The notes beneath the pieces are model-generated. The model did no database searches and was not told the DNA's origin. It saw only the letters and a list, made by a program, of their open reading frames with translations. The position numbers were made by a program, and so were the translations under genes. A DNA stretch of 64,000 nucleotides from an uncultured bacterium. Its GTDB lineage: Bacteria > Patescibacteriota > Minisyncoccia > Phycocordibacterales > Phycocordibacteraceae. The stretch is from the NCBI GenBank assembly GCA_947085985.1, contig CAMTYL010000003.1:137239-201238 (forward strand). Direction: 5' to 3'. Shown here in pieces: positions 13,874-39,030 of the stretch. Position 1 is the stretch's first letter, and each line of letters begins with the position of its first letter.

Positions 13874-14648
13874 TTTCAATATGTCTATACCTCCGAAGGT
13901 GCTTTGTGTTGGCAGGTTCTATCTCCTGAAAGAACCTTTTAATGTCTGGTCTTCTTGTTAGATACACCCTCCACGAACCAACTTCGGATGGTGTGTATTG
14001 TAGCGTAAGTAGCATCCTCCGTAAAGAATGAAGTAAGGGTAAGGATTTATTTGTCAGGGAGACCTGTATACCGTGACGGATTCTATATATGGAACCGTCT
14101 GTGTCAAAAAATCCCCGCAGAAAAGCAGTCATATATTCCCTCTCCTTAAACACCCAGGAAGGCACGTCCACCTGCAGAGCAACCTTGTTTCGCACTAACC
14201 CTTCATTCTCGAGCCAAGAGGTTAGAGCTACTGAGCCAATGTAGACATCTCTGTACCCGTCCTGCCGTACAAGAATAGTTGCCTCTACACCAAACAAAGA
14301 CTGCATAAGCGAAGCAACATACTCAACGTACTCAAGCTCCTTTGTGCCAAGAGTAACGATAGTTTGAAAGCGTGATATGTGCCCGTCACCAAGCATAATT
14401 CCAAAGAACTCTGCCAAAGGTGCGGAGTACTCGGTGGGTATTCGAATGTCTCGCCTCATATTTCGGAAGCCTTTCTTTAGTTCGGGAGAGCTCTGAATGT
14501 TTAATCTTCTAAGTCGCAGAAAAACCGAACTCTGTGCTATGCCCAGAATATGTGCAACTTCAGAAATTGATTTATTTTCGCGCACGTACAAACGCTCAAG
14601 CTCAGTTCTGTACGTCTTCTCTTCTGCTGCGTTCCAGCGTCTGGCCAT
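13848..14648 (-). CDS. Free-standing LAGLIDADG-type homing endonuclease (two motifs) with an N-terminal sigma-70 region-4-like HTH
   Basis: Two LAGLIDADG motifs (GIMLGDGHI and GFFDTDGSI). N-terminal HTH ...KSISEVAHILGIAQSSVFLRLRRL. Its last ~8 codons overlap the 5' half of tRNA-Tyr. Confidence 0.65.
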   Translation of the reverse strand: MARRWNAAEEKTYRTELERLYVRENKSISEVAHILGIAQSSVFLRLRRLNIQSSPELKKGFRNMRRDIRIPTEYSAPLAEFFGIMLGDGHISRFQTIVTLGTKELEYVEYVASLMQSLFGVEATILVRQDGYRDVYIGSVALTSWLENEGLVRNKVALQVDVPSWVFKEREYMTAFLRGFFDTDGSIYRIRHGIQVSLTNKSLPLLHSLRRMLLTLQYTPSEVGSWRVYLTRRPDIKRFFQEIEPANTKHLRRYRHIESVGVRAVN

Positions 14649-25390: not shown

Positions 25391-25458
25391 TATACCTTAG
25401 AAAAATTTGGAATTAAAAGCGGGGGCTTGTGGCCCCCGCTCTCAAACAACAACTGTCC

Positions 25459-26166
25459 TCAGAATTTTCCAACAAAGAGGAAACCGTCGTTTGATTGACC
25501 ATCCTTGATATTGAGCTGATGCTCAAACCAGGAGGAAATGGCAGTGTCGGCGCACGAGGGTATTCTCTCGTACAAACACTGCCTGTACAGACCTTTACTC
25601 ACTCCAGTCACTGGATCGAATACTCCTTCCCTTTCGCTCATAAGCCTCGCGGCCTGACCACGAAGTTGCTCTGGAATACCCTCGAGTGGATTAGGCCAAA
25701 GTGACGAGGAAAAGCTTTTTGCGAGGCAGTACATCACCGGATTCTGGGTGGTGAAGGCTACTGTGTCCAGGGAACTTCTCTCACGAAGTGCTCCGACTAG
25801 GCGTGCGGCGGCCCGTTGCCCTTTGACTTTTGGCGACAAGGCTATTCCGTGAAGGTACATATAGCCCTCTCTCGGAAATAGACCAGACGCAAAGCCCAGA
25901 GCTTCTTCGTCAGTATGAAGGATCGCCAGAGCTGAGGCTCCGCTCAGATGCTGTTTCGTTCCGTCCCCAGAATCTTCATTCAAAGGGGTCCCGAAACTAT
26001 CAGCAGTGAGCTGTGTCAGATGGCTGATGAGTAGCTGTACACAGCTTTCATTCTCGTCGAGAGATACCGGGCTGTCCGTGGTGCCAAGAATGGATACTTG
26101 GAGCCCGGCGCTTTGCCCACACCGCTCGGCGTCTTGTAGCTTAAGGAAGTCCGCGAGGTAGGTCAT
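25459..26166 (-). CDS. Putative GNAT-like acyltransferase
   Basis: YMYLHGIALSPKVKGQRAAARLVGAL resembles the GNAT motif A acetyl-CoA loop. Weak. Confidence 0.35.
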   Translation of the reverse strand: MTYLADFLKLQDAERCGQSAGLQVSILGTTDSPVSLDENESCVQLLISHLTQLTADSFGTPLNEDSGDGTKQHLSGASALAILHTDEEALGFASGLFPREGYMYLHGIALSPKVKGQRAAARLVGALRERSSLDTVAFTTQNPVMYCLAKSFSSSLWPNPLEGIPEQLRGQAARLMSEREGVFDPVTGVSKGLYRQCLYERIPSCADTAISSWFEHQLNIKDGQSNDGFLFVGKF

Positions 26167-26298
26167 GCAAGGCCCCTTTCGTGGCTGTGCTGGTTCAGTC
26201 TGGAACAAGAGTACCAGGTACCCCAATCCTGTCAAACGTATACACAAAGCAGCGCCGCTTAGGAATAGCTTCCCAAGCGGCGCAATCTCCTCGTGTTC

Positions 26299-26736
26299 TT
26301 AGTAGATCATCCCGGTTATTTCAGCGATGCATTCAACCGTTCGCCAAGGCTTGTCGCAATCTGTTTCCTCGAGCAGTCCAGCAAATTTTCCTCTCTTAAG
26401 CCAAACTGTCTTCGCGCCGCACTGATTACCAAAGCGGATTTCCTCGTGCAGATAGTCGCCGATAACATACACAGAGTTGTGTCCCTCTCCTGTGCGCTCA
26501 ACTAACTCCGCGAACATCTCTCTAGTCTTCTCCTCTACAAACGAAACAGAGGAAAAGAAGCTCAAGATACCGTGGGATTCAAGGATGTGTTCACGACCCG
26601 GTTCCTTGCGAGAGACAAGGTGCATTTCAGCACCGGACCCTCTTAGCCAGGTGAGCATCTCTAGGACGCCGGGAAGGAGACTGTTTGTGTCGGGGTCGTA
26701 CAAGGTACGGTTAAGATCAAATATCACACAAGTCAT
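26299..26736 (-). CDS. HAD-superfamily hydrolase
   Basis: N-terminal DxN nucleophile motif (CVIFDLNRTL) and C-terminal VIGDxxxxD motif (VYVIGDYLHEEI). Confidence 0.55.
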   Translation of the reverse strand: MTCVIFDLNRTLYDPDTNSLLPGVLEMLTWLRGSGAEMHLVSRKEPGREHILESHGILSFFSSVSFVEEKTREMFAELVERTGEGHNSVYVIGDYLHEEIRFGNQCGAKTVWLKRGKFAGLLEETDCDKPWRTVECIAEITGMIY

Positions 26737-26809
26737 TCTTCTCGCCCTTTTGTTGCTCTCGTCTAAGCCTACGATATCTGTGCTCTTACGCAACTAGGTA
26801 GATAAGATT

Positions 26810-26849
26810 CGTCGGTAAGGAACGAACCAGCCTGGATGCTCCAAAACCT
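26810..26849. repeat. Repeat copy b: ABC-exporter 3'-end-derived direct repeat
   Basis: tcgtcggtaaggaacgaaccagcctggatgctccaaaac. Read on the minus strand it gives WSIQAGSFLTDE, the ABC C-terminal motif. It is in the same orientation as copies a, c and d. Confidence 0.6.
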
Positions 26850-26867
26850 ATAGCTTTTCTTACATAT

Positions 26868-26896
26868 TTGACAAAAATTGGAGCTACAGTATCATA
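26868..26896 (+). promoter_or_regulatory. Promoter-like element after repeat b, upstream of the GCS2 gene
   Basis: TTGACA, 16-17 nt, TATCAT. Followed by a GC hairpin (agccccctc-tcatgt-gagggggct at about 26995-27025) and AAGGAG 7 nt before the ATG at 27071. Confidence 0.3.
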
Positions 26897-27070
26897 TTTA
26901 TATGTACGCGTATTTCGGCCAGCATCATCACATCAATGCACTCTCGTTGAGAGAGGATTGCTTTGATGTTGCGTAGGCTTAGATACCCGCTCCCCCACCA
27001 AAGTAGCCCCCTCTCATGTGAGGGGGCTTTTGCGTTGCAAAAGTACGGTTCTTTAACAAGGAGCACGCAC

Positions 27071-27961
27071 ATGCGTGAAGAACTTCGTTCGTACTTCACT
27101 GATGGACTGCGTCGTCGCGCAGGACATACGGTTGGAGTTGAAGCGGAAACGTCATTTCTCGATGGCGATTCTCAACTTCCCATTTCGCTTGCCACGTCTC
27201 AGAACATGTTCTCTGAGCTTGCGCAACGTAACTGGCATATCGAAAGTACTCGCGGGGGATTGATTACTAGCCTGCGAAGTGAGCGTGGAGATATGCTCAA
27301 CTACGAGCTCGGCAGACAGAATCTTGAGATATCGGCGGCGCCTGGCATTGATGGAGCGTCGGGAATCATGAGTGCGCAAGTGGCGCTCTCTGAACTGTAT
27401 GAGGTAGCACGGCTCTTTGGTGCCGCCCCCTCGTTCTCTCCCATGCTTAGTACTAAAGAGGACTTGCTGGTGATTCCTGACGAGCGTGATGCTATTTGGC
27501 TTCAACTTGATGGGCGTGAGGCTCTTATGCCTCTCGCCACAATCTCTTCGGTCCAGTTCACTGTTGAGGTTTCGCTTGAAAACGCCATTCCTGCTATCAA
27601 CCGCTTGAATGAGGTGTTGCCGGATTTCCTCCGCGAGTATCCTCAAGAGAAGGTGTGGCGAGAGTACATAGCGCAATCGAAAGCTGGGTACGAGGAATCG
27701 CGCTACGGCGGCCCCCGTTACTTCAAGTCGCTTGATGACTACATTGAGCAGCTTGGAAAGTACAGGGTCGTCGCAGGCGCCTGTCTTACTCGGCAAGTTC
27801 CGATTGAGAATGTCTCTCTCTTCATTCGTTCAGTCTGGTGGTACTTCCGACTTCGCCGGTACGGCGACCGCATGTGCATCGAGGTGCGCCCGATTGCTCG
27901 GGTGCATGATGCTGATATCGCGGATAAGCTCGAAATGGTGTTGAACATCATTCACTCGTGA
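27071..27961 (+). CDS. Carboxylate-amine ligase, glutamate-cysteine ligase family 2 (GCS2/YbdK-like)
   Basis: N-terminal GHTVGVEAETSFLD resembles the GCS2 TVGVEEE motif. About 300 aa, the typical size. Paired with a GGCT gene. Confidence 0.45.
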   Translation: MREELRSYFTDGLRRRAGHTVGVEAETSFLDGDSQLPISLATSQNMFSELAQRNWHIESTRGGLITSLRSERGDMLNYELGRQNLEISAAPGIDGASGIMSAQVALSELYEVARLFGAAPSFSPMLSTKEDLLVIPDERDAIWLQLDGREALMPLATISSVQFTVEVSLENAIPAINRLNEVLPDFLREYPQEKVWREYIAQSKAGYEESRYGGPRYFKSLDDYIEQLGKYRVVAGACLTRQVPIENVSLFIRSVWWYFRLRRYGDRMCIEVRPIARVHDADIADKLEMVLNIIHS

Positions 27962-28048
27962 TACCTGAGGGGAGTGCGCTCCCCTCTTTCATCGAGCATT
28001 TCAGGTTCACTGAAATGTTCGACAAAAGATTACTAAGTATCAAAGTGT

Positions 28049-28528
28049 ATGAACAAAAGTGTACTAGTGTTTGGGTACGGTTCCCTCATGAATCCTAGAA
28101 GCCTAGCGCTGACCTTGCCAGGAAAACGCACAGTGACCCCCGCAGTTCTGCAGGGTTACCGACGAGTGTGCAACGTCCCAGTAAATGGTTACGCCTATCT
28201 TAATCTTGAGGCATGTGAAGGGTTTAGTGTAGAGGGTGTGCTTGTTCAGGTGTGGCAAGACGAACTGCCTGCACTGTTTAAGCGCGAGGAGGGATACGAG
28301 TTTGTAAATGTAACTTCTGCGATAGAAGGCATTGTGAGCAAGACGTTTGCCTTTATTGCAAAGTCCGGATGTAGAGAAGATCTCGCTGTCCCAAGAAGTT
28401 ACCTACAAACATGCTTTGCCAAAATGGAGCCCACAAAAAACGAACAGACTTTCCTGGAATTAAGAATGCCCGGAGGAGTATATGAAGACCTAGATAATCC
28501 CGTTTATCAGAACTATGTTCTGGACTAA
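28049..28528 (+). CDS. Gamma-glutamyl cyclotransferase (GGCT/AIG2-like)
   Basis: VLVFGYGSLMNP is the YGSL signature with a catalytic Glu further on; 159 aa. Confidence 0.65.
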   Translation: MNKSVLVFGYGSLMNPRSLALTLPGKRTVTPAVLQGYRRVCNVPVNGYAYLNLEACEGFSVEGVLVQVWQDELPALFKREEGYEFVNVTSAIEGIVSKTFAFIAKSGCREDLAVPRSYLQTCFAKMEPTKNEQTFLELRMPGGVYEDLDNPVYQNYVLD

Positions 28529-28568: not shown

Positions 28569-28821
28569 AAAGTTGTTAAGGTTTTGCGCGAGTTTGATAA
28601 ATTAGAGAGTCGCAGTATGAAATAAGTATGTTCGCGTAGTTTGCAAGTGCTCGGTACCGTTTACCTTAAGGCGCCAAGATAGAACCACTCCCCTCCTGCC
28701 TTGACGTAAGTCTTGGGGAATAGAATGACCCCCTCTCTATAGTGTAAGAGTATGTACTGCAGTAACCGCAAGCGTCCCCGCACGTAGTTAGTGCCCCTCA
28801 GATAGTGCTATCCTGTGATAT

Positions 28822-29685
28822 ATGAAAAAGCGTCTTTCAATCAATTTGCTTACTTCCAGAGTCTTTTGGGAAAGTATGCCACTGATCATCGCCGAAATAG
28901 CGGAAAGAGAGCATTATCTTTCCATATTCGACGACAGACATATGCCTACCCTTGAGGGTTTGTTCGATTGTGATGTTCTCATCGACATGAGTGCAATTAC
29001 TGATGTGGAGTTCTACGAGAAATTGAAGACTGAATCTCTACGGAGAAAGATGGCTGGACAGAAAATTCCTCTCATGGTCGACAGTCCTGAGGCAGTAATG
29101 AATTCCATGGATAAAAGAAAAACACATGCGCTTATGCCGGATCTGGTTCCAGAATCCTATGACTTAGATGGTGTTAATAACGAGAGTATGATTGCCAAAT
29201 TCTTTGATGACGAATACCTTCTTATAAAAGACCCCTTCGGATGGCAAGCGAGGGGAATAGACCGACTATCACCAAAAGCAGCACTCGAAAAGTACCGAGT
29301 CTCAAAGGGGCTAATCGCTCAAAAATATATTCCATTCACGGACGGTGTAGGAAGAGTCCTTACCTTGAATCATGCTTCTGATTTTGAGATCATGTGCGCC
29401 TATTTACGAATACCGGACTCGTGGAGAACTGGTGAAGGTACTGAATCTCAATACAAATTGGTAGAAATTGACGAAAAACTCCGAGACTTTGCGAAAACTG
29501 CCGCAATACGGTCTGGGCTTTATTTAAACGGTATCGATTACATTTACAAAGATGGACAGTATGTTCTTTTAGAAGTGAACGCCGCGGCAGGACTCCGCGA
29601 TCCTTATGATGAGTTCAAAATAGATACTCCAAAGATTTTTCTTGATCACATCGAAAGAAACTCCAGAGTCGCTCTTGGTGATTAG
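28822..29685 (+). CDS. ATP-grasp ligase (RimK-like small amino-acid ligase)
   Basis: C-terminal ...YVLLEVNAAAGL (E-x-N catalytic loop) and a central nucleotide-binding region; 287 aa. Low-GC gene. Confidence 0.6.
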   Translation: MKKRLSINLLTSRVFWESMPLIIAEIAEREHYLSIFDDRHMPTLEGLFDCDVLIDMSAITDVEFYEKLKTESLRRKMAGQKIPLMVDSPEAVMNSMDKRKTHALMPDLVPESYDLDGVNNESMIAKFFDDEYLLIKDPFGWQARGIDRLSPKAALEKYRVSKGLIAQKYIPFTDGVGRVLTLNHASDFEIMCAYLRIPDSWRTGEGTESQYKLVEIDEKLRDFAKTAAIRSGLYLNGIDYIYKDGQYVLLEVNAAAGLRDPYDEFKIDTPKIFLDHIERNSRVALGD

Positions 29686-30497
29686 TAGGTTCTTAAAGTA
29701 GATTTCTGAAACAGCGTATACCTGGTTTTGCCGTAAAAGTCGTAAAACGGAAAATACTCTGCGAGAACTGCACTGGCCCCAAAGTCCAGTAGCTGTTGGC
29801 CAAAATTTGAACCTGTTTCCATATACATTATTAAGTTCACCTCGTTTTCGATTGCCAAACTGAATACTACATCCGCAGTGTTCGACACAAAGATCATTCC
29901 TGTTGCAATAATGTACTGAGCCGACTTGATACGTTCTGTTATGTCGGACCCTGCTCCGTGTTCAATAGTCTTGCTACTAATCTGCAAGCCTATTTTTTGA
30001 GGTTCCAAATCGAGCACGGACAAATCGATATCTCGCGCAGCAGCCTCTTCTATGATTTCAGTTGCTGCACCAATTAACAGCACACTAGAGCCTGATGGAA
30101 TTTGATCCATTAACTTGCTAGCTCGCTGGCGTGCTTTTTCTCGCAGATTACCTACTAAGAAAGAGGGTACGTGTTCGATATCTTCTTCATTAAGGAGGCA
30201 GTACATGGCATCAGCAAGTGCTACGCGCATGTAAAGAGGAATGTCTTCTTTCAGAATATCTGGAATTTCATTATTAACAAATTTGCTTAAGCCATAATCG
30301 ATTTCCTCTTGGAAATATGAAAATCCATACGCATTCTCAAGAAGCACGAGACAGAAATTCATGTCAGTGAAAACTGAATCGCAATTCTTAATAGTATACA
30401 GTGACTTACCAAGAATGATGTTGTCGATACGGAGGTTCTCGGTTTTCTGGGCCAAGGAATGAGTCCCCTTGCTGAGCAGAGTTTCGAGTATGCTCAT
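29682..30497 (-). CDS. Hypothetical Rossmann-like protein (DUF364-like?)
   Basis: Central SSVLLIGAATEIIEEAAARDIDLSVLDLEP beta-alpha-beta signature. Translationally coupled with the upstream ATP-grasp gene (4-nt overlap). Confidence 0.3.
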   Translation of the reverse strand: MSILETLLSKGTHSLAQKTENLRIDNIILGKSLYTIKNCDSVFTDMNFCLVLLENAYGFSYFQEEIDYGLSKFVNNEIPDILKEDIPLYMRVALADAMYCLLNEEDIEHVPSFLVGNLREKARQRASKLMDQIPSGSSVLLIGAATEIIEEAAARDIDLSVLDLEPQKIGLQISSKTIEHGAGSDITERIKSAQYIIATGMIFVSNTADVVFSLAIENEVNLIMYMETGSNFGQQLLDFGASAVLAEYFPFYDFYGKTRYTLFQKSTLRTY

Positions 30498-31873
30498 ACG
30501 GAAGTTAGTGCGTGATTTCGTACACTGGCAATTAGTTCTCCGGCCCAGGGTTCAATTTCATACTTTTCTCTTGCGATAATCGTCTTCTTCAGAATAATTC
30601 TTGCTACAATTCCTCCTGGGGGTAGTTCGCGACCAGTGTGCGCACTGTAGGTTACTAATATTTCTCCGTCCTTCAAGTCTTTAACTCGAAGCAAGAAATT
30701 TACTTTTCTGAACGCATCGTTTTCTAGATGGTAGATTCCAGGCTCTAGGTATCCAGCAACAGTAACTGTGGAATGCGAATTATTATAGACGATGACTTGC
30801 GCATAATCATGTTCAGACAAGTCTATCTCTCCGTTAAGAAACTCCAGTCCATCTACATAATCTAGCACAGAAAATTCTTCGAGATGCTTTATTATGTCGG
30901 GGAGCAGACCTTGGTCTTTCTGCATACCAGTCAGCAAGCGCGTTAGACCCACAAGTCTGGTATTTAATTCTTGAACATATACGATGTTAGTTTCTTTGTC
31001 CCAGAGAAAGTCAACCCCGAGTATGCCCCTGTAACCCTTGCCTCTCGCGTGCTCCGCTATTTTCTCGCACATACTCCGCACGGTTTTCACGAGTGAGGCA
31101 CTGAACAAGCTCTGGTTGGTGTCATTTCCTGCAAACTTGAAAGGCATTGATGTCAGCTCAGGAAATCCTACTAGTTGTAAAAAAGGACCCCGAATTAGTG
31201 TTTTTTCTTCAAGCACGGTTAGATGAACAGAAATTGGTATGTTATTTCTCAAATACTTTGTTGCCTTAAATACACCCCGCAGGCCCTGTGCCTTTTCAAA
31301 AATATCTTCGATTGAACCAACTAAGAATGTGTCTTCACCAGAAACACCCAAGGAGCCTTGCAGGATGAAGGGCACCCCCAAGCCCTCTTTACATTCTTCA
31401 AATGCCATTTCGAGATCTGTCGACACGTCTTTGAAGACCAGGGAGGAGTTACATGGCAAAGCCAGTTCTTGGCAAATAGAGGGCAGATTCAGTTTATCGC
31501 CAAGAACTTCTTGGAGCCGATATGGTGCAAGCGACATTTGAATCTCCGCTGTGTGGAGAAGCTCGTCGATATTGTGGTTCATAAAGAAAAAAAGCACCGT
31601 AGAATTGACTCTATCGGGAAGCGCACGGGACAGAAATTCCTGATCAGCAAGCATAATCTCAACGGCTTTGTCACTATCGATGTCCTTTGCCAAGTCCTTA
31701 TTAAGGTACGAGTCAATATTCCATGCTTGCCTCAAGTGCCGGTATAAAGAATCGTCATCATAGGTGACTATCTTAAAATTCTGCAGCAAGTCCAAAAGTT
31801 CTACCGACATAAATGGAGTTTTCTCAAAAAAGATAACTTGGCAATCTGGCGAACTGGACCCCTCCGTGTTCAT
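30494..31873 (-). CDS. Large ATP-grasp domain protein
   Basis: GILGVDFLWDKETNIVYVQELNTRL (ATP-grasp E-x-N Mg-binding loop); 459 aa with N-terminal pre-ATP-grasp region. Confidence 0.5.
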   Translation of the reverse strand: MNTEGSSSPDCQVIFFEKTPFMSVELLDLLQNFKIVTYDDDSLYRHLRQAWNIDSYLNKDLAKDIDSDKAVEIMLADQEFLSRALPDRVNSTVLFFFMNHNIDELLHTAEIQMSLAPYRLQEVLGDKLNLPSICQELALPCNSSLVFKDVSTDLEMAFEECKEGLGVPFILQGSLGVSGEDTFLVGSIEDIFEKAQGLRGVFKATKYLRNNIPISVHLTVLEEKTLIRGPFLQLVGFPELTSMPFKFAGNDTNQSLFSASLVKTVRSMCEKIAEHARGKGYRGILGVDFLWDKETNIVYVQELNTRLVGLTRLLTGMQKDQGLLPDIIKHLEEFSVLDYVDGLEFLNGEIDLSEHDYAQVIVYNNSHSTVTVAGYLEPGIYHLENDAFRKVNFLLRVKDLKDGEILVTYSAHTGRELPPGGIVARIILKKTIIAREKYEIEPWAGELIASVRNHALTSV

Positions 31874-33330
31874 GGACGTGGGCGCATAAGTGGAAAAATC
31901 TGGGCTTCACGAATGCTTTTTCCAGCAAGGAAGCTGAATAAACGCTCGGAAACACCGAAACCAAACGTTGGTGGCATACCATACTCCATGGCTTCGACAT
32001 ACTCAAAGTCAGCCATCTGCGCTTCTTCGTCCCCAGCATCTCGCAGTGTTTGCTGGTCCTCAAATCGCTTGCGCTGGTCAGCGGGATCGTTTAATTCGTT
32101 GAATGCTTTTCCGAGTTCGCTACCCCCAATCAAAATTTGAAAGCGGTCAACGACACGAGAGTCGCCCATGGACTTTTTTGCTAAAGGTTCAAGGTACACA
32201 GGCATGCCGGTCATTATCGCTGGGCCACCGATAGTCTTACGAATCTTCTTCCATAAAAGGTCTATACCACGACCTGTATCAATGTTTGACTCATAAGGAA
32301 TACCATGTTCTTGCAAAAGAGAAACTACATTTTCGAGCTCAACGTCCCTCGGATCGATTCTGTACTCTTTCTGCATAAGCTCGTTAAAATCATACCTTTT
32401 CCATTCGGAGTTCAGATCAACATCGAAATCATTAATCTGGAAACGGGACGTACCAAACGTGGACTCCGCGACAGTTCGGTAAAGCTCGATAAGCATTGGT
32501 ACACCTGCGCGTGCATCCTGATACGCTTCGTAAAACTCGAACGAAGTATAGTCATTGGCGTGCTCGTACGACATGCCTTCATTTCTAAATATGCGGCCTA
32601 TTTCAAAGGTCTTTGGAAGTCCACCAATCATCAGCTTCTTTTGCCATAACTCTCCTACTGATATGCGAAGGAAAACATCAATGTCTAATGAGTTGTGATG
32701 GGTAACAAACGGCCGCGCCTCAGCTCCACCGGTCATGGTTTCAAGAACTGGGGTCTCGACTTCAATAAAATCCCTCTCAAGCATAAAGGTTCTGACTGCA
32801 TTCCAAAAGACCGAGCGCTTCTTAATAAGTTCAGTCACATCGGAATCTAGCAGCATGTCGATGTAACGTTTTCGGTAGCGTTCATCCTCATCCTTTAGCC
32901 CAAACCATTCGTCCGGAATAGGCCTTAAACTTTTTGCAAGCATGCGCCACTCGGCTACCATGAGAGAATTCACCCCACGTTTCGTAGTGAAAGCAGTTCC
33001 AGAGACTTCAATAAAATCACCATTGTCTACAACATCCATAAAAAGACCCGTACTCTCATTACCGAGCGCATCCTTTTTAATAAGCACTTGAACACGCCCA
33101 CTGCCGTCAAATATGTCAAGAAAGATAATTCCTCCTTGATTTCTGAGGGCCATAATTCGACCAGCAATTGTTACGTGCTCTTCGGAAGAAACGAGCAAGC
33201 TGAAGGACTCCAAAAATTTAGCATTATCATGCGTACGTTTTGACTCGGCCGGATACGGGTCAATTCCTTGCTGCCTAAGCAAGTCGAGTTTCTTGAACCG
33301 TTCGGCCCGGACATCGTCTAGAAAAGCCAT
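31870..33330 (-). CDS. lysS: Lysyl-tRNA synthetase, class II
   Basis: OB anticodon-binding N-terminus. Motif 2 (FEIGRIFRNEG), motif 3 (EYGMPPTFGFGVSERL); 486 aa. Low-GC (about 40%) gene. Confidence 0.85.
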   Translation of the reverse strand: MAFLDDVRAERFKKLDLLRQQGIDPYPAESKRTHDNAKFLESFSLLVSSEEHVTIAGRIMALRNQGGIIFLDIFDGSGRVQVLIKKDALGNESTGLFMDVVDNGDFIEVSGTAFTTKRGVNSLMVAEWRMLAKSLRPIPDEWFGLKDEDERYRKRYIDMLLDSDVTELIKKRSVFWNAVRTFMLERDFIEVETPVLETMTGGAEARPFVTHHNSLDIDVFLRISVGELWQKKLMIGGLPKTFEIGRIFRNEGMSYEHANDYTSFEFYEAYQDARAGVPMLIELYRTVAESTFGTSRFQINDFDVDLNSEWKRYDFNELMQKEYRIDPRDVELENVVSLLQEHGIPYESNIDTGRGIDLLWKKIRKTIGGPAIMTGMPVYLEPLAKKSMGDSRVVDRFQILIGGSELGKAFNELNDPADQRKRFEDQQTLRDAGDEEAQMADFEYVEAMEYGMPPTFGFGVSERLFSFLAGKSIREAQIFPLMRPRP

Positions 33331-33450
33331 ATACTAGTATTGTTTATTATACCAGAAACTGAATGTTTATCTAATTTAACCTGCTCGTCTTGTAGGCCTA
33401 GACATCGAGTCGTGTATCATTACTCGTGAATACTTTTTACTCAATCCCCT

Positions 33451-34698
33451 ATGAATACTAAAAGAATACCTTTTTCGCTCGACCAAATCCAGGCACTCGC
33501 GCGCGAGCACGCAACACCATTTTATGTATACGATGAAGCTGGAATTAGAAGTTCCGTCCGAACGCTGTTTAAGCTCTTTTCGTGGAATGCGGGCTTTAGA
33601 GAGTATTTTCCGATAAAGGCAACGCCAAACCCTGCGATTCTGAAGATTCTGGCAGAGGAGGGTTGTGCCGCTGATTGCTGCTCAGTGCCGGAGCTCCTGA
33701 TTGCCGAACAAGTCGGACTAATAGGAGAGTCAGTCATACTTACATCAAACTTTACCGGGCCAGAAGAGTTCAAGAAAGCTAGAGAAATGGAAGCGATAAT
33801 AAACCTTGATGATCCAAATCACCTGCCCTATCTCGACGACTTGGCGGGTCTGCCAGAGGTATTGTGCCTCCGATACAATCCCGGACCGTTTGGCCAAGGC
33901 GGCTCAGAGACATGGGCACATCTGACTGAAGACAAATTCGGTATGAAAAAAGATCAGTTGTTTGAAACGTATATTCGTGCGAGAGAGAATGGAATCCGTC
34001 GATTCGGACTGCACATGATGATCATGTCCAACGATCTTGATGGCGAGCATTTAGTAGAGACTGCCCGAATTTGTTTCGAGACTGCTGTGGAATTGCGACG
34101 AATCTTCGGAATCAATCTTGATTTTATTGACTTGGGAGGCGGTGTCGGGATACCGTATCGACCCGACCAGGAAGCAATCGATATGGCGACCGTCGTTGAG
34201 AGAATTCGTACCATGTATGAAGAACACCTATATAGTGGAAATTTAGAACCTTTGCGACTTTTCACGGAATTTGGTCGATTTGTGGTCGGACAGCATGGCT
34301 ATCTTGTCGCCACTGTTAGGCACATAAAAGAAAGTTATAAACATTTTGCTGGATTAAACGCGACCATGGCAGACCTTATGCGACCTGGAATGTACGGCTC
34401 GTATCACCACATCAGCATTCTAAATAAATTGGGAGAGAAATCAGAAGTAATGTATGACGTGGTGGGTTCGTTGTGCGAAAATAACGATAAATTTGCGATT
34501 GATCGTCAACTCCCACGGCTTGATCCGGGTGATGTGGTAGTTATTCACGACGCTGGGGCGTACGGTCGCGGAAAAGGCTTTAATTTCAATGGAAAATTAC
34601 GTCCAGCTGAATTTTTATTTGAGAAAGACGGTGTATCCTTCAAAAAAATCCGCCGAGCTGAGACGTCCGAAGACTATTTGTCGACTCTTCGAGTGTGA
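33451..34698 (+). CDS. PLP-dependent fold-III decarboxylase (Orn/DAP/Arg decarboxylase family; LysA- or carboxynorspermidine-decarboxylase-like)
   Basis: FYVYDEAGIR...PIKATPNPAILKILAEEGCAADCCSVPEL (PLP-Lys region), GGGVGIPY, EFGRFVVG; 415 aa. Confidence 0.7.
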   Translation: MNTKRIPFSLDQIQALAREHATPFYVYDEAGIRSSVRTLFKLFSWNAGFREYFPIKATPNPAILKILAEEGCAADCCSVPELLIAEQVGLIGESVILTSNFTGPEEFKKAREMEAIINLDDPNHLPYLDDLAGLPEVLCLRYNPGPFGQGGSETWAHLTEDKFGMKKDQLFETYIRARENGIRRFGLHMMIMSNDLDGEHLVETARICFETAVELRRIFGINLDFIDLGGGVGIPYRPDQEAIDMATVVERIRTMYEEHLYSGNLEPLRLFTEFGRFVVGQHGYLVATVRHIKESYKHFAGLNATMADLMRPGMYGSYHHISILNKLGEKSEVMYDVVGSLCENNDKFAIDRQLPRLDPGDVVVIHDAGAYGRGKGFNFNGKLRPAEFLFEKDGVSFKKIRRAETSEDYLSTLRV

Positions 34699-34890
34699 CT
34701 ACAGGCTATATAATTGTCTGACTTAATAGCGCGGTTAAGATAAGAAATTAGTCTCTAGGGATGATTTCAAAGTCCGAGATTTTGAAATATGTTACGTTTT
34801 GAAAATCTCAAAAACTATACAAAAAATGCTAGTAGTCGGGTTCGTAAGTTAACATACTTGCATATACTCTCAATAATGATGGCAGATGAA

Positions 34891-36039
34891 CTAAAAAAAT
34901 CTTGCTAGCTTAAATCCGTCTATGTCGATAGTGCTGATACCATCAATTACGAGTTCAGCAAGTATCTCACCGACTGCTGCAGAGTGCTTGAAGCCATGAC
35001 CGGAACATGGAGATGCAAGAATTACTGAAGGGTGTTCCGGGTGTTGATCGATCACAAAGTCATGATCAGGTGTGAGAGTGTAGAGACATGGAACCGCCCT
35101 TACGCAGCGACTGCTCAATCCTCTAATGTTTGGAGCTATGAAAGTGTCATAGGCGGATTGTTTCTCTTCCTCACTGACATCTCGACTAGTCTCGTCAACA
35201 GACGAGACTAGTTCGTCATCCGCACACGCTATTTTTAGCCCGCCGTGCGGACCGTCCAAGGCCGGGAATCCATTCAAGTGCCAGATAAAGATTGGGAATT
35301 TGTCAGGAAGAAAACTTTCTACCGGTCCGTCAATATCAAACCAGTACATCACCTGACGGTGTACAGTAAAAAGCTTTTGATATTTCTCCTCGAGAAGTCG
35401 CGAGAGCCAAGGGCCAGCGCTGATTATAAGCCTATCAGCAGTGTACTCTCCCAAATTCGTCTTTACTGTTACTCCGTCACGGCCTTCTGAAAAACTCACC
35501 ACTCTCTCATTCATGTTTATTTGAGCGGCATATTTTGCAGCAAGAGAAAGTTGAGCAGTCAGACATTCTTCAGCACGGAGAAACCCAGCATTAGGCTCAT
35601 AATAACCAATATCGCCGTCTCGTATAATAAATTGTGGAAATCGTTCTCGAAGCTCCATTGTGTCTAGTATTTCATGGTCAATCTGATATTTCTTCGCCGC
35701 CGCTACTGTTGCACTGAAGAAATTATTTACTGCGTCCTTCTCCTGCTTACCTATGTTTGAAATAATAATTCCACCCGTAATTGACAATATTTTTTTTCCA
35801 GTCTCCTTCTCTATCTCTTCCCACAACTTATAAGAACGAAGCGACAGTGGAGTATAGTGCTCACCTTCCCCGATTGCTTGACGTGTGATGCGAGTGTCTC
35901 CGTGTGATGATCCGTAGGCGTGTGGGGTCGAAAATTGCTCGATGCCCAATACTCTATTACCTTTCTTTGCTAATTGATACAAAGCTGCGGACCCAGTAGC
36001 TCCTAGACCTACGACAATGGTATTAAACTTAGTAGTCAT
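34891..36039 (-). CDS. FAD-dependent amine oxidase of the monomeric sarcosine oxidase / N-methyltryptophan oxidase (MSOX/MTOX) family
   Basis: VVGLGATGSAALYQL (GxGxxG). HGYGSSHGDTRITRQA (MSOX signature). C-terminal CSGHGFKHS (covalent-FAD Cys region). Confidence 0.65.
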   Translation of the reverse strand: MTTKFNTIVVGLGATGSAALYQLAKKGNRVLGIEQFSTPHAYGSSHGDTRITRQAIGEGEHYTPLSLRSYKLWEEIEKETGKKILSITGGIIISNIGKQEKDAVNNFFSATVAAAKKYQIDHEILDTMELRERFPQFIIRDGDIGYYEPNAGFLRAEECLTAQLSLAAKYAAQINMNERVVSFSEGRDGVTVKTNLGEYTADRLIISAGPWLSRLLEEKYQKLFTVHRQVMYWFDIDGPVESFLPDKFPIFIWHLNGFPALDGPHGGLKIACADDELVSSVDETSRDVSEEEKQSAYDTFIAPNIRGLSSRCVRAVPCLYTLTPDHDFVIDQHPEHPSVILASPCSGHGFKHSAAVGEILAELVIDGISTIDIDGFKLARFF

Positions 36040-36052
36040 ACATGAAGCAGCG

Positions 36053-37099
36053 TCAGGCGAGTGGGTCAGGATACATGCTGTGAACATCGTCAATTTCGGC
36101 AAGTACTTCTGGGGAAAGTACTAAGTCAGTAGCCGCAATATTTGCACGCAAATGTAAACTGCTGGTTGCTCCAACAATCGTACTTGTAACGAATGGGCGT
36201 GAGAGGACAAAAGCAATTGCCATGGTTGCCGGATCGAGATCGTGCTTTTTGGCAATCTGCACGTAGCGTAATACAGCTGCCTGGGCGGCTACAGGATTAT
36301 ACCTATCGCGATTGCGAGCAAAGAGTGAGAAGCGGGCTCCGGGTGGAAGTGCGCCGTCCAAATATTTACCTGTCAGAACACCCATAGAAAGGGGCGCGTA
36401 AGCGAGGAGACCTATTTTCTCCCGTGCTGCAAATTCGCCCAATCCTATTTCAAATGTTCTATTTATAAGCGAGTATTGATTCTGGATCGTTGATATGTGC
36501 GCGAGACCTTTCTCACGTGATGCCCGAAGATACTCTGAAACACCCCACGGAGTTTCGTTGGATATTCCAATGAGTCGTGTTTTCCCCTCTCTTATTAATT
36601 CAGTAAGCGCATCAAGCGTCTCTTCAATTGAAGTCGATACATCTTCGGGATTGTGTGCATATCCACGAGCCCCAAAAAAGTTAGCTTCACGCTCTGGCCA
36701 GTGAATTTGGTAGAGGTCAAGATAATCAGTGCCAAGACGGAGAAGCGTTCCGTTTATCGCTTCGCGTATGCTTGTACGATCCAAATGCGATTGCCCGTCA
36801 GCTGAAGGCGCGCGCGTACGCATAATTGATGAGGGAGCTACCTTACTTGCAAGAACAAGAGTGTCGCGTCGCCCATGCCGCTTAAGCCAAGAACCAATGT
36901 ATTCTTCAGTCAATCCCTGTTTCTTGTGCTCTGGCGGAACAGGGTATATTTCTGCAGTATCTATAAAATTAACTCCTTTGGAAATAGCATAGTCAAGTTG
37001 TTCGTGTGCTTCGTTCTCTGTATTCTGCTGACCCCAATTCATTGAGCCGAGACAAATAGCCGATACACGCACGTCGCTATTAGGAATCATCTTGTACAT
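36053..37099 (-). CDS. Aldo/keto reductase (AKR superfamily, Tas-like)
   Basis: ICLGSMNWGQQNTENEAHEQLDYAISKGVNFIDTAEIYP with catalytic D/Y/K/H context; about 349 aa. Confidence 0.7.
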   Translation of the reverse strand: MYKMIPNSDVRVSAICLGSMNWGQQNTENEAHEQLDYAISKGVNFIDTAEIYPVPPEHKKQGLTEEYIGSWLKRHGRRDTLVLASKVAPSSIMRTRAPSADGQSHLDRTSIREAINGTLLRLGTDYLDLYQIHWPEREANFFGARGYAHNPEDVSTSIEETLDALTELIREGKTRLIGISNETPWGVSEYLRASREKGLAHISTIQNQYSLINRTFEIGLGEFAAREKIGLLAYAPLSMGVLTGKYLDGALPPGARFSLFARNRDRYNPVAAQAAVLRYVQIAKKHDLDPATMAIAFVLSRPFVTSTIVGATSSLHLRANIAATDLVLSPEVLAEIDDVHSMYPDPLA

Positions 37100-37236
37100 C
37101 ATAGACAAGCGAATAGTACAATGAAAAAGAAACACATTCTAGCCAATCGACACGCCCGTAGCGACGTCTTGTGTCTTAATGATTGGAGGAAGTCCGTACG
37201 CACCTTCTATAGTTTGCAGGAGTTCTGGGTCCATGG

Positions 37237-39030
37237 CTATTCTTCTGAATCCTTTATAAACGAACCAGCCTGAATGCTCCAGAGTTTGTGGTAAAGGCCG
37301 CCTTCCTGCTTCAAGAGGTCGTCGTGGGTGCCGTCCGCAGCAATCTTTCCGTCTTCAATCACAATGATGCGGTCCATCTTCATGATGGTTGAGAGTCGGT
37401 GCGCAATTACGATAACCGTCTTCCCTTCCATAAGCGTCTTCAGCGCGTCTTGAATGAGCGACTCGCTCTCGGAGTCTAGTGCTGAGGTGGCTTCGTCCAG
37501 CACTAGGATAGGCGCGTTCTTTAGAATGGCACGTGCGATAGCAACGCGCTGGCGCTCACCACCAGAGAGTTTTACGCCGCGCTCACCCACGTGGGTGTCG
37601 TACCCTTCTGCAAGCTTAGAAATAAACTCGTGGCAGTGAGCCTTCTTTGCCGCTTCCATAATCTCCTCGTCTGTCGCGTCCGGCTTGCCGTACGCGATGT
37701 TTTCTTTCAGCGAACGGTGGAATAGTGTGGACTCCTGCGGAACAAAGGCAATGGCACGGCGTAGGCTTTGCTGTGTGACTGTCTTGATATCGGTACCATC
37801 AATAGTGATGCTGCCGCTGGTGACGTCGTGAAGGCGAAGCAAAAGCTTAGTGATAGTAGTCTTACCTGCTCCTGAGGGACCTACAAGCGCAACACGTTGC
37901 CCTGGCTGTATGGCAAGGTTGAAGTCACTGAGAACCTCACTTTTGTCTGCAAAAGCAAAGCCAACATTGTTAAAGGAAATGGTGCCCCTAGAGACAGAAA
38001 GCTCTGACGCCCCCTGGATATCCTGAATTGCATGCGGCTCCTCCATAACTTCAATCATCTCGTGGGCTTCAGAAAGTGCGTCAAATAATTGGCGCAGATT
38101 CCCGCTGACGCTTCCTATTTGGTCTATAAGGGATATGGCATATATTTGAATCAAGACAAGAGATCCTACAGTGATACTCCCCTGCCACCAGAGGTAAAAT
38201 CCTACTAAGAGAAGTGCTACCTGTGCAAAGCGGGTAAGAAAACCTTGAATGCCATATACGAGAACATCAGAATTCCAAGAGCGAGTGGTGGCTTGATACC
38301 AGTCGTACACCACGCTTGCGAAGTGTTTTGACTCGCCTACTTCTGCCGCAAACAGTGTGACTGCAGAATGATTCCCTACTGTATCTGAGAGCACACCAGT
38401 TAGACGACTGTCCTGTGCTGCGCGCGCAAGTTTATACTTGTAGCGCCATACGGTTAGAAAGTACATCAAGAGTACAAATAATATGGTCCACGTCAGCAGC
38501 CCAACTCCCAGATAGATGTTTTGAGTAAAGAGCACCACAATGACTCCAGTAGTAAACAGGAAGGTTGGAACCATGCCCTCCATGACACTATTGAAGATTT
38601 GTTGGTATGCGTGAGAGTATCTGCTTACACGACGCGTCAAAGTACCGGCGAAGTTATTTATGAAGAAATCATGACCGTGTCCAATGAGATAGCTAAATCC
38701 GCGAGTGAAAAGGTCGCGCGCAACACGGGCCTCTAGCTGCGTGACAGTCCACATTTGAATACGGACGCCAATCCAGTTCCCGGTCACTGCTAATGTGTAG
38801 AGGCCAAGCGCAAGAAGCATTACATGCAAATACTGCTGATCAACGCCGATGGTCGTCACCAGGTCAATAAAGTGTTTGAGAAAAAGCGGAGCAGCGATGC
38901 TGGTGCCAACGGTAGTAGCAATGCCAAGAAGTACACCAAGAAAGAACCACGGATACTTTGCCGTAGCGCGAGCATAATCTTTCAGCACTGACCACGCGTG
39001 GCCAGTCTTTTTGCCCTTAGCCTTCTTCAT
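37237..39030 (-). CDS. MsbA-like ABC exporter (fused permease and ATPase)
   Basis: 6-TM N-terminal domain. Walker A (GPSGAGKTT), LSGGERQRVAIARA, Walker B ILVLDEATSALD; 597 aa. Its last about 20 codons form repeat copy d (37259-37315). Confidence 0.85.
   Translation of the reverse strand: MKKAKGKKTGHAWSVLKDYARATAKYPWFFLGVLLGIATTVGTSIAAPLFLKHFIDLVTTIGVDQQYLHVMLLALGLYTLAVTGNWIGVRIQMWTVTQLEARVARDLFTRGFSYLIGHGHDFFINNFAGTLTRRVSRYSHAYQQIFNSVMEGMVPTFLFTTGVIVVLFTQNIYLGVGLLTWTILFVLLMYFLTVWRYKYKLARAAQDSRLTGVLSDTVGNHSAVTLFAAEVGESKHFASVVYDWYQATTRSWNSDVLVYGIQGFLTRFAQVALLLVGFYLWWQGSITVGSLVLIQIYAISLIDQIGSVSGNLRQLFDALSEAHEMIEVMEEPHAIQDIQGASELSVSRGTISFNNVGFAFADKSEVLSDFNLAIQPGQRVALVGPSGAGKTTITKLLLRLHDVTSGSITIDGTDIKTVTQQSLRRAIAFVPQESTLFHRSLKENIAYGKPDATDEEIMEAAKKAHCHEFISKLAEGYDTHVGERGVKLSGGERQRVAIARAILKNAPILVLDEATSALDSESESLIQDALKTLMEGKTVIVIAHRLSTIMKMDRIIVIEDGKIAADGTHDDLLKQEGGLYHKLWSIQAGSFIKDSEE

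Follow-up and report, generated by a model that had tools for sequence, protein, structure and literature searches.

Five neighbouring genes of a Patescibacteria (CPR) genome, for a RimK-like ligase, a DUF364 protein, the ATP-grasp enzyme ATPgraspA, lysyl-tRNA synthetase (LysRS, gene lysS) and a DAP-decarboxylase-like enzyme, form a conserved module, which is rare and recurs beside lysS in many ultra-small Patescibacteria. No description of this module was found in the searchable literature. We tentatively hypothesize that it encodes a ribosome-independent amide-ligase pathway to a small lysine- or DAP-derived, (iso)peptide-like compound, the lysine link being suggested by the gene neighbourhood. 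The genes lie in the 64-kb stretch of DNA that was analysed (the window), and they were identified from open reading frame calls and Pfam/NCBIfam profile searches, which recovered every gene listed in a preliminary description of the segment at its reported position. The features are as follows.

28049-28528, plus strand: GGACT/AIG2-like gamma-glutamylamine cyclotransferase (PF06094, 29.1 bits vs 22.8)
28822-29685, plus strand: RimK-like ATP-grasp ligase, module member (PF08443, 25.4 bits, cutoff 21)
29682-30497, minus strand: DUF364 (PF04016)-fold, 271-aa Rossmann-like protein (Pfam family of its homologues, fold match)
30494-31873, minus strand: ATPgraspA, 459-aa three-domain ATP-grasp carboxylate-amine ligase, the signature gene of the module
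31870-33330, minus strand: class II LysRS, lysS (TIGR00499, 443.8 bits vs 427.6)
33331-33450, no strand: intergenic gap separating the divergently oriented lysS and decarboxylase genes, in which a promoter-like site lies
33451-34698, plus strand: Orn/DAP-type, DAP-decarboxylase-like PLP enzyme, module member ("type 2" architecture)
34891-36039, minus strand: SolA/MSOX-like (N-methyl-amino-acid-oxidase-like) flavoenzyme (NF008425, 429 bits vs 257)
36053-37102, minus strand: Tas-like NADP(H) aldo-keto reductase, AKR (NF007912, 418.7 bits vs 415)
37237-39030, minus strand: MsbA-like ABC exporter

The segment 28569-37258 has a GC content of 44.4% vs 52.5% in the rest of the window and represents its lowest-GC 8.7 kb (the minimum starts at 28301), thus the low GC noted earlier holds in direction, while the value of about 40% was an overstatement. 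Individual genes of the segment range from 41.7 to 47.2% GC, and their GC3 is 0.39-0.45 vs 0.53-0.63 in the flanking genes. The same low-GC3 island character of the module was observed in five genomes, and locus L040 retains a truncated remnant; the module is best read as accessory and horizontally mobile. ATPgraspA overlaps the DUF364 gene by 4 nt (30494-30497), as previously reported, and lysS also by 4 nt (31870-31873). A putative promoter of the lysS-ATPgraspA-DUF364 operon, identified by consensus match only, lies on the minus strand at 33373-33346 (TAGATA-16-TATAAT with an extended TG), and the count of promoter-like sites in 33331-33450 is not above chance.

The core genes co-occur as a block in other genomes, so the association is not confined to this one and the earlier grouping stands in that respect. 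The core consists of ATPgraspA and DUF364, usually with the RimK-like ligase, homologues of which (41-70% identity) are present in the module of L006-L009, L014, L016-L019, L026-L030, L034 and L046. Its partner is either the DAP-decarboxylase-like enzyme, as in this window, or a second large ATP-grasp protein with or without a GNAT. The 4-nt overlap of ATPgraspA and DUF364 is found in nine other loci, the majority of those where the two are adjacent (8 nt in L024). Of about 22 informative lineages with an ATPgraspA homologue, 16 have lysS directly next to it. The orientation varies (same strand and upstream, divergent, convergent or downstream), and the module-adjacent LysRS proteins fall in two deep clades that share 33-44% identity.

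ATPgraspA, with or without DUF364, also occurs with no lysS nearby (L010, L011, L013, L014, L025 and L031/32); a Sphingomonadaceae MAG is among the genomes whose module lacks lysS, and one solitary ATPgraspA adjoins LeuRS instead. Such contexts would be expected of an accessory or conflict cassette unrelated to lysine that keeps arriving or staying beside lysS because this gene anchors homologous recombination or is a hotspot of insertion. The identities of ATPgraspA and LysRS are indeed weakly correlated (Pearson r = 0.43, Spearman 0.2; between L006 and L007, LysRS is 74% and ATPgraspA 39% identical), and, from the intermediate GC3 of lysS, recombination tracts may end within this gene or past it. 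However, the adjacency spans two deep LysRS clades and at least four relative orientations, so a single anchor mechanism explains it poorly, and the 4-nt overlap of lysS and ATPgraspA suggests coupled expression. Independent lysine- or DAP-related neighbours also argue for a lysine link: the DAP-decarboxylase-like enzyme, an ODC-like gene near the module in L029, and DAP-type MurE and TilS after ATPgraspA-DUF364 in L010. We consider a cassette without any lysine link unlikely, and the lysS adjacency could be kept partly by recombination with the conserved lysS as an anchor.

From the gene identities and folds, the conserved block, its linkage to lysS and its island-like composition, all of them observed, we infer which substrates the amide-ligase pathway uses, in which order its steps run and what it makes. 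In the variant of this window, the decarboxylase would turn a free DAP-type diamino acid into lysine or a close analogue. The DUF364 protein would supply or modify a SAM-derived amino-acid unit, ATPgraspA, similar to PylC and to L-amino-acid ligases, would make an acyl-phosphate from a carboxylate and join an amine to it, and the RimK-like ligase would attach a further acidic residue. Methyltransferases, GNAT, aspartate racemase, SolA-like oxidase and AKR may represent lineage-specific tailoring or turnover. Class I methyltransferases recur beside ATPgraspA (L047, L010, L028 and L013), in line with a SAM link, and in L028 the same string of genes includes a member of the aspartate-racemase family (TIGR00035, 140.9 bits vs 93.1). 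An ordinary lysS would be co-transcribed with the module and would often move along with it. The enzyme set is compatible with ribosome-independent amide or peptide chemistry, which supports the preliminary description in this respect. Across the loci compared, the module has no conserved association with an exporter, a carrier protein, a precursor peptide or a riboswitch.

The RimK-like ligase, ATPgraspA and the DUF364 protein match characterised families only at the fold or superfamily level. The RimK-like ligase has weak matches to MptN, CofF, RimK and LysX. ATPgraspA carries the invariant motif QExNxRxxG, and it scores no higher against PylC than against PurK, PurT and LAL-type ligases; distant ATP-grasp relatives (24%) on Rhizobium plasmids adjoin an Orn/Lys/Arg decarboxylase. 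Sequence identity to the ligases of known L-amino-acid-ligase/ATP-grasp cassettes (BacD of bacilysin, RizA, BL00235, PGM1 and BesA) is only 10-14%. None of the characterised cassette members adjoins an aminoacyl-tRNA synthetase (aaRS) or DUF364 gene, and the module differs from them further in having no conserved exporter and in its hosts, Patescibacteria with very small genomes. The homologues of the DUF364 protein carry PF04016, while the window protein itself gives no match to this model at E <= 0.01. Its AF2 model (pLDDT 90.7) has the DUF364 structures 3L5O and 3NPG as best Foldseek matches in the PDB (E 5.8e-9, TM 0.61-0.67), although identity to the solved DUF364 structures is about 10% and the sequence profile does not reach them. 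The window protein shares its two-domain fold, enolase-N-like plus Rossmann-like, with 3L5O, 3NPG and Orf5 of the bonnevillamide cluster. Orf5, a 4-methyl-azetidine-carboxylate synthase, is the sole characterised DUF364 enzyme and cyclises a SAM derivative (PMC12930334); unlike Orf5, the module protein has no radical-SAM C-methylase partner.

Judged by its sequence, LysRS looks like the ordinary housekeeping enzyme of the lineage and not like a resistance paralogue. It scores 489 vs 468 against PRK00484, contains both PF01336 and PF00152, and keeps the catalytic motifs in alignments to LysU (1E1O) and to 3A74. More than 120 cluster representatives 68-80% identical to it are annotated as LysRS of Patescibacteria MAGs. 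This LysRS type also occurs without the module, on contigs of 721, 704 and 645 kb (near-complete genomes) and in L050, and in the LysRS clade of the window not one alignment column separates module-linked from module-free proteins, thus the dedicated resistance copy proposed earlier is unsupported. The alternative that the preliminary description offered, an ordinary lysS of the lineage that was moved horizontally, is compatible with the composition and ortholog data. The GC3 of module-side lysS is island-like or intermediate (the window, L016 and L047), whereas that of module-free lysS in L043 and L050 is like their own backbone. No second lysS was seen in the 64-kb window or in the retrieved module loci; apart from LysRS, the window encodes one class IIb synthetase, a non-discriminating AspRS.

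The island-like or intermediate GC3 of module-side lysS and the tight, overlapping linkage would also be expected of an antimetabolite cassette, whose product, a lysine analogue or a LysRS inhibitor, would act against hosts or competitors, with the linked lysS travelling along to provide tolerance. Self-resistance aaRS genes occur in antibiotic clusters, as with the additional IleRS encoded in the mupirocin cluster, and here too a synthetase gene stands among biosynthetic genes, partly with the same atypical composition. ATPgraspA is fast-evolving and patchy, with the remnant in L040, and the module of L014 lies inside a defence-type island beside GmrSD-, AbiJ- and AbiGi-like genes. By analogy, the Rossmann SAM enzyme, the fold-type III decarboxylase and the GNAT resemble the MccD/MccE steps of microcin C, which targets AspRS. 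Unlike the mupirocin-type synthetase, however, this LysRS is the standard orthologue of the lineage without distinguishing substitutions, and its active-site motifs are those of module-free proteins of its clade. Canonical-type LysRS, 33-44% identical to that of the window, is linked equally often, neither an exporter nor an immunity gene is conserved (the ABC gene belongs to the backbone), and a second lysS was seen in no locus examined. An antimetabolite role thus appears doubtful.

The order synthetase, ATP-grasp, Rossmann-like enzyme recalls by analogy pylS-pylC-pylD, an order found in the pyrrolysine operon, and lysine is a likely building block in both systems. A ligase of PylC type, together with a Rossmann-like enzyme, might accordingly make an N-epsilon-acyl-lysine that the adjoining synthetase charges to tRNA. 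This is very improbable, since the enzyme encoded here is a canonical LysRS of class IIb: it has an OB anticodon domain, and its motifs are identical to those of module-free orthologues. The equivalents of LysU E240 and E428, which contact the epsilon-ammonium group, are aligned and unchanged. Compared with pylTSBCD, the module is without PylRS, tRNA-Pyl, PylB and PylD; no additional tRNA was found within or close to the module loci, the fold of DUF364 is not that of PylD, and the undistinguished PylC score of ATPgraspA also speaks against this explanation.

The best PDB relatives of the decarboxylase are DAP decarboxylases (LysA), and its score against the lysA model TIGR01048, 270.1, is under the cutoff of 297.9. 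Like LysA and its biosynthetic relatives such as BtrK of the butirosin pathway, it belongs to the PLP decarboxylases of fold type III. The PLP lysine and the GGG, ExGR, RPxxY, CExxD and GAYG motifs are kept; RPxxY and CExxD supply the residues that bind DAP at its distal amino-acid end. Differences are the sub-cutoff lysA score and HMMIMS in place of HxHIGS (the PLP-stacking histidine), which is conserved in the module-linked clade; conserved small proteins, an acyl carrier included, are also absent from the module. Orthologues 62-70% identical stand beside RimK in L008, L009 and L028, and one in L024 adjoins ATPgraspA and lysS. Such an enzyme is present in merely about five lineages, so decarboxylation is not the core chemistry of the module.

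The retained DAP-specific residues would also suit lysine supply and cell-wall synthesis, in which a LysA-type decarboxylase would make lysine from scavenged meso-DAP for LysRS and the ligases, in the manner of D-aspartate ligase, would add residues such as D-Asp or D-Glu to the Lys/DAP position of peptidoglycan precursors. Consistent with this role are the aspartate-racemase family gene in the L028 string, the DAP-type MurE directly after ATPgraspA-DUF364 in L010, a complete relative genome with lysS between mreBC-pbp2 and the mraZ-rsmH-ftsI-murE cluster, and a weak match of ATPgraspA to an archaeal pseudomurein ATP-grasp model. However, wall genes adjoin the module in few loci, the flanks being mostly unrelated housekeeping genes, and DUF364, the methyltransferases and GNAT would be left without a role. 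HMMIMS and the sub-cutoff lysA score also speak against it, and an accessory, island-like module would be unusual for core wall synthesis. A wall function is therefore improbable.

The genes flanking the module do not support the earlier view of a single 8.7-kb cassette. The SolA-like oxidase and AKR accompany the module in this window and in the close relative L046 and are absent from the other module loci; they are lineage-specific add-ons whose tie to the module is uncertain. The GGACT/AIG2-like gene, just outside the segment and beside the module in no other locus examined, is possibly a local accessory gene; in the butirosin side-chain pathway, an ATP-grasp enzyme, a decarboxylase of the DAP decarboxylase family and a GGACT-type cyclotransferase act together. 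The ABC exporter adjoins lysS as part of the backbone and does not belong to the module, being absent from module loci other than those with the backbone order dnaJ-TM-ABC-lysS, which is also found in L047.

The low-GC segment of the window holds a conserved module organized around ATPgraspA, a 459-aa three-domain ATP-grasp protein, in which known kinds of enzymes are combined in an unprecedented, lysS-anchored way. ORF calls and searches with Pfam and NCBIfam models recovered every gene named in the preliminary description, and its family assignments hold.

Genes of 28569-39030
28822-29685, plus strand: RimK-like ligase (PF08443, 25.4 bits against 21)
29682-30497, minus strand: 271-aa DUF364 protein, without a Pfam match of its own
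30494-31873, minus strand: ATPgraspA, 459-aa ATP-grasp protein
31870-33330, minus strand: class II LysRS (TIGR00499, 443.8 against 427.6)
33451-34698, plus strand: Orn/DAP-type decarboxylase (lysA model 270.1, under the cutoff of 297.9)
34891-36039, minus strand: SolA/N-methyl-amino-acid oxidase (NF008425, 429 against 257)
36053-37102, minus strand: Tas-like AKR (NF007912, 418.7 against 415)
37237-39030, minus strand: MsbA-like ABC exporter (Pfam and NCBIfam ABC models)

The LysRS gene overlaps that of ATPgraspA by 4 nt, and ATPgraspA overlaps the gene of the 271-aa protein by the same length. With 44.4% GC, against 52.5% in the remaining window, 28569-37258 is the lowest-GC 8.7 kb window within the 64 kb, and GC3 is 0.39-0.45 inside the segment and 0.53-0.63 in the flanks; the compositional contrast is therefore real but smaller than had been claimed.

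Loci with ATPgraspA homologues were drawn from species-representative genomes, JGI metagenomes and contigs obtained by exact look-up, and the window proteins were mapped onto them. The family proper is small: 1.84 billion representatives yield about 20 clusters at 50% identity, and scores fall abruptly from 283 to 186 bits at its edge. Homologues come from MAGs of the Staskawicz-, Davies-, Berkel- and Paceibacteria types, and a member of the 90% cluster of the ABC exporter gene carries the annotation "Patescibacteria group bacterium", so that the host is a CPR bacterium. The recurrent partners are DUF364, mostly with a 4-nt overlap, the RimK-like ligase and LysRS. To these is added the decarboxylase or, alternatively, ATPgraspB, another large ATP-grasp protein about 22% identical to ATPgraspA. 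A small GNAT often accompanies ATPgraspA and is fused to it in some proteins.

Architectures of the module
Type 1: lysS > ATPgraspA > (GNAT) > RimK >< ATPgraspB > DUF364
Type 2: decarboxylase, usually with RimK, together with ATPgraspA-DUF364 and lysS (window, L008, L009, L024, L028 and L046; RimK was not seen in L024, a short contig)
Minimal: ATPgraspA-DUF364, with or without lysS

Once duplicates are removed, lysS directly adjoins ATPgraspA in 16 of the about 22 lineages whose flanks are informative, in positions that vary from upstream on the same strand to divergent, convergent or downstream. The biosynthetic-type block with an aminoacyl-tRNA synthetase that had been proposed is thus genuine and recurs elsewhere, but it is smaller, and the exporter lies outside it. 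No description of the ATP-grasp/DUF364/lysS module was found in the literature searched. A solitary ATPgraspA adjoins LeuRS in one locus (L011, 10001-13897).

The LysRS of the window clears the curated lysS cutoffs (PRK00484, 489 against 468; TIGR00499 likewise) and consists of an OB anticodon-binding domain (PF01336, 51 bits) and a class IIb core (PF00152, 198 bits). Compared with E. coli LysU (1E1O), it keeps FRNEG, H, E..Y, the E of (P)EL(Y), F.EL and the motif-3 Arg, among which are the presumed motif-2 Arg/Glu/His and the F.E of the lysine pocket; the same residues are retained in a residue-level alignment to the Geobacillus enzyme. Its variants are HANDY for HNPEF, GKAF for GNGF and GFGVSER for GLGIGIDR. 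The module-linked LysRSs form two deep clades, one canonical (HNPEFT; GxGxGxDR) and one of the window type (FRNEG..HA(N/Q)DYT; GKAF.ELND; GFGVSER). Identities of 68-80% to the window enzyme were found for more than 120 cluster representatives, many of them annotated as the LysRS of their MAG, and judging from these sequences Paceibacteria-like CPR have the window type as their standard LysRS. It occurs without the module in a complete 721 kb genome and on contigs of 704 kb and 645 kb, for example in the context greA-lysS-mraZ-rsmH-ftsI-mur, and the module-free locus L050 carries the string lysS-AstE/AspA-tyrS-CYTH-trpS-aspS, which mirrors the window backbone. When the LysRSs of seven intact module loci, plus that of L040 with a truncated ATPgraspA, were compared with four module-free enzymes of the same clade, no alignment column told the groups apart, and both had the same motif 2, motif 3 and lysine-pocket motif. 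Given the close representatives, the module-free contexts and the lack of separating columns, the window lysS looks like the ordinary housekeeping enzyme of its lineage, and the data do not support the earlier suggestion of a specialised resistance paralogue. In the 64 kb covered, the only further class IIb synthetase (6618-8060) is a non-discriminating AspRS, and the additional class IIb genes in L046, the close relative of the window locus, and in L029 are AsnRS/AspRS-like and AspRS, respectively, neither being a second lysS.

The module genes form a low-GC3 island in all five genomes examined (window, L016, L017, L018 and L047); the lysS beside it has an island-like or intermediate GC3, whereas the module-free lysS of L043 and L050 matches the backbone. 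Identities of LysRS and ATPgraspA are weakly correlated (Pearson 0.43, Spearman 0.2), as exemplified by the pair L006/L007, with 74% identity in LysRS and 39% in ATPgraspA, and the pair L009/L018, with 47% and 68%. L040 (2548-5005) looks like a decayed module remnant: after lysS, ATPgraspA is reduced to its N-terminal half, and a tRNA-His gene comes next. In L014 (3238-15028), from a Sphingomonadaceae MAG with 62% GC, ATPgraspA, GNAT, RimK, ATPgraspB and DUF364 occur with no lysS and adjoin GmrSD-, AbiJ- and AbiGi-like genes, a defence-island-like context. Together, the island GC3, the weak correlation, L040 and L014 indicate that the module is accessory, horizontally exchanged and sometimes lost, and has repeatedly been kept beside lysS.

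The mosaic composition favours a reading of lysS as a recombination anchor with no functional link to its neighbours; we consider this unlikely, as the orientations vary across two LysRS clades and lysS and ATPgraspA overlap by 4 nt. Co-mobility, fast evolution and the island context speak for an antimetabolite pathway protected by the linked LysRS, but the active site of this enzyme is unchanged and no exporter is conserved, which leaves that explanation improbable too. None of the module proteins matched PADLOC defence models better than E 1e-3, and two mentions of "DUF364" in defence papers really refer to DUF3644. A plasmid search with DUF364 gave no match, and that with ATPgraspA gave only 24%-identical relatives; on Rhizobium plasmids their neighbours encode an Orn/Lys/Arg decarboxylase, a peptide importer and a C45 peptidase. 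The adjacent hypothetical protein of the Rhizobium locus does not belong to DUF364. One such locus, L048 on Rhizobium leguminosarum plasmid pRL22b3 (NZ_CP050096.1, 209017-226132), has an ATP-grasp protein of the PRK06524 type annotated as "biotin carboxylase" next to an 889-aa Orn/Lys/Arg decarboxylase-like protein, a C45 peptidase, a peptide ABC importer, an amidase and a radical-SAM RiPP epimerase, and is another uncharacterised cluster.

The AF2 model of ATPgraspA (pLDDT 91.8) is a three-domain ATP-grasp fold for which Foldseek places biotin carboxylases on top (TM about 0.6, 14% identity). A comparison with individual ATP-grasp proteins gave scores of 24.5 for the AccC domain, 23.3 for PurK, 23.2 for PylC with bound L-lysine, 22.7 each for a Streptomyces peptide ligase and PurT, 22.5 for the L-amino-acid ligase BL00235, 22.0 for BesA and 21.9 for PGM1. 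The similarity to biotin carboxylase is at the fold level only: the best curated biotin-carboxylase model, PRK06524, scores 117 against 684, accC-type models stay below 25 bits, and no BCCP or carboxyltransferase gene was found in any surveyed locus. Because the scores are far under the cutoffs and the partner genes are absent, membership in this family was rejected, and the invariant motif Q-E-x-N-x-R-x-x-G presumably fits carboxylate-amine ligases better. The RimK-like ligase exceeds the Pfam RimK gathering threshold (25.4 against 21) but falls short of NCBIfam rimK_fam (26.3 against 143.4), and it is far under the cutoffs of the MptN, CofF and LysX models.

For the 271-aa protein, a sequence search against the PDB gave no significant match, and the fold search alone succeeded. 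Its AF2 model (pLDDT 90.7) combines an enolase-N-like and a Rossmann-like domain as in 3L5O and 3NPG, which account for the top four Foldseek matches (E 5.8e-9 to 4.4e-6). The window protein has no PF04016 match at E <= 0.01; about 20 of 90 homologues carry a precomputed PF04016, and some are named DUF364 by NCBI. On the strength of these homologues and of the predicted model the protein is a DUF364 member. The only characterised enzyme of this family, Orf5 of the bonnevillamide cluster, cyclises 4''-methyl-SAM to methyl-azetidine-carboxylate (PMC12930334), and a methyltransferase-like Rossmann site was remarked on in the DUF364 structure paper (PMC2954201).

The decarboxylase aligns over its full length with solved DAP decarboxylases and lies under the curated lysA cutoff (TIGR01048, 270.1 against 297.9). 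It keeps the PLP lysine, the GGG phosphate loop, ExGR, RPxxY and CExxD (compared with 2YXX, 1TWI, 2P3E and 1KNW), all conserved in five module-linked orthologues, and we take RPxxY and CExxD to bind the distal amino-acid end of DAP. The retention of these motifs points to a free diamino acid of the DAP type as the substrate, which would yield lysine or a close analogue. The HxHIGS motif is near-universal, and its second histidine presumably contacts the cofactor by stacking on the PLP ring. In five of five module-linked orthologues, 62-70% identical (L008, L009, L024 and L028 among them), it is replaced by HMMIMS or HMMIIS, so that the module-linked decarboxylases look by sequence like a distinct subfamily defined by a conserved change at this presumed cofactor-contact residue. 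In L009 (5603-7752), a radical-SAM/SPASM gene and a 72-aa ORF directly adjoin the decarboxylase-like gene; radical-SAM enzymes are not a conserved part of the module.

Additional genes differ among lineages. Class I methyltransferases recur with the module in L047, L010, L028 and L013, an aspartate-racemase family gene is present in L028 and an ODC-like gene in L029, and in L010 a DAP-type MurE and TilS directly follow ATPgraspA-DUF364. The racemase, MurE and the dcw-cluster neighbourhoods favour a reading as plain lysine supply by LysA combined with cell-wall peptide ligases. This has a low probability in our view, since it leaves DUF364, the methyltransferases and GNAT without a role and fits poorly with the accessory nature of the module.

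We tentatively hypothesize, with somewhat less than even confidence, that the module encodes a ribosome-independent amide-ligase pathway acting on a lysine/DAP scaffold, its steps being deduced from folds and gene neighbourhoods. In the window variant, the decarboxylase would convert a scavenged DAP-type diamino acid to lysine or an analogue, and DUF364 would contribute or transform a SAM-derived amino-acid unit. ATPgraspA would form an acyl-phosphate and couple it to an amine, most obviously the epsilon- or alpha-amine of lysine, and the RimK-like ligase would add an acidic residue. GNAT, methyltransferase, racemase, oxidase and AKR may serve lineage-specific tailoring or turnover, and co-expression of lysS may reflect a shared lysine pool or a bearing of the product on LysRS. 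Pyrrolysine-like entry of a modified lysine into translation is very improbable: a tRNA, PylB and PylD are all lacking, and LysRS has kept its pocket residues. While pylTSBCD comprises PylRS, tRNA-Pyl, PylB and PylD, the module has LysRS, no tRNA within it and a DUF364-fold partner. The amide-ligase pathway would also differ from the LysW/LysX and BtrI/BtrJ/BtrK pathways, whose clusters encode a small carrier protein, since among ORFs of 30-130 aa across 21 loci, neither a carrier protein nor a precursor peptide was found, only shadow ORFs inside conserved genes.

Rfam searches at the gathering threshold found no riboswitch or T-box: all matches in the window were tRNAs, as were those in 13 loci apart from one group II intron. 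A dedicated tRNA is missing from the module and its immediate surroundings, and the tRNAs encoded elsewhere in the loci carry ordinary anticodons. In L032 (2626-4467), a group II intron with reverse transcriptase is located just upstream of ATPgraspA.

Patescibacteria have tiny genomes and are generally thought to be poor in biosynthesis, with almost no secondary metabolism. A conserved, mobile module repeatedly found beside an essential translation gene suggests a lifestyle-relevant function, with lysine economy, envelope chemistry and host interaction as candidate roles. A more far-reaching and rather improbable reading is that episymbiotic Patescibacteria have a lysS-coupled pathway for a weapon or a metabolite: a lysine analogue or LysRS-directed compound would be made from lysine/DAP and a SAM-derived unit, and the pathway would spread horizontally with lysS; if true, this would be a new class of aminoacyl-tRNA-synthetase-linked, ATP-grasp/DUF364-based natural product. 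Any product that targets or depends on LysRS would imply a new kind of synthetase-linked pathway. The module moreover provides an experimental handle on DUF364, with its single characterised member, and on an ATP-grasp family of about 20 clusters.

On the exporter side of the decarboxylase, the SolA-like oxidase and the AKR adjoin the module only in the window and in its 78%-identical relative L046. In the sister lineage L047 the order is dnaJ-TM-ABC-lysS-methyltransferase-ATPgraspA-DUF364, and exact-sequence look-up placed dnaK-dnaJ-grpE near the same genes on metagenomic contigs, one of them 426 kb long. The L047 order implies that the ABC exporter is an old backbone neighbour of lysS, and AKR-oxidase-decarboxylase is an insertion between the two; absent from all other module loci, the exporter does not belong to the cassette.

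On the other side, 24386-28528 is a run of amide-metabolism genes encoding, in order, an AstE/AspA-like deacylase, a weak GNAT (25459-26247), a HAD phosphatase, an unknown 296-aa protein and a GGACT-type cyclotransferase (28049-28528). Outside close relatives, none of the loci has them next to the module, and the recurrence of AstE/AspA near lysS in L046 and in module-free L050 marks it as part of the backbone synteny. The unknown protein at 26963-27961 (also 27071-27961) had no Pfam, NCBIfam or PDB match, and look-up of the protein at 51629-53623 gave nothing on record.

The backbone is unusually rich in aminoacyl-tRNA synthetase genes, with the non-discriminating AspRS (6618-8060), TrpRS (8423-9376), TyrRS (14718-15977), a second TrpRS (22257-23255) and LysRS (31870-33330). 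The two TrpRS genes, on the minus and plus strand, respectively, lie 13 kb apart and are 33% identical in their products; both exceed the trpS cutoff of 176.75 bits, with 266.6 and 261.1 bits, and one of them may be auxiliary or have been gained horizontally. A LAGLIDADG homing-endonuclease ORF (13848-14648, minus strand) is situated between tyrS and tRNA-Tyr (13790-13873, minus strand), its 3' end overlapping the tRNA, and an S8 peptidase with a peptidoglycan-binding domain follows downstream (11482-13851). A fused SAM decarboxylase (SpeD)-aminopropyltransferase (SpeE) gene is located at 20846-21940 on the minus strand.
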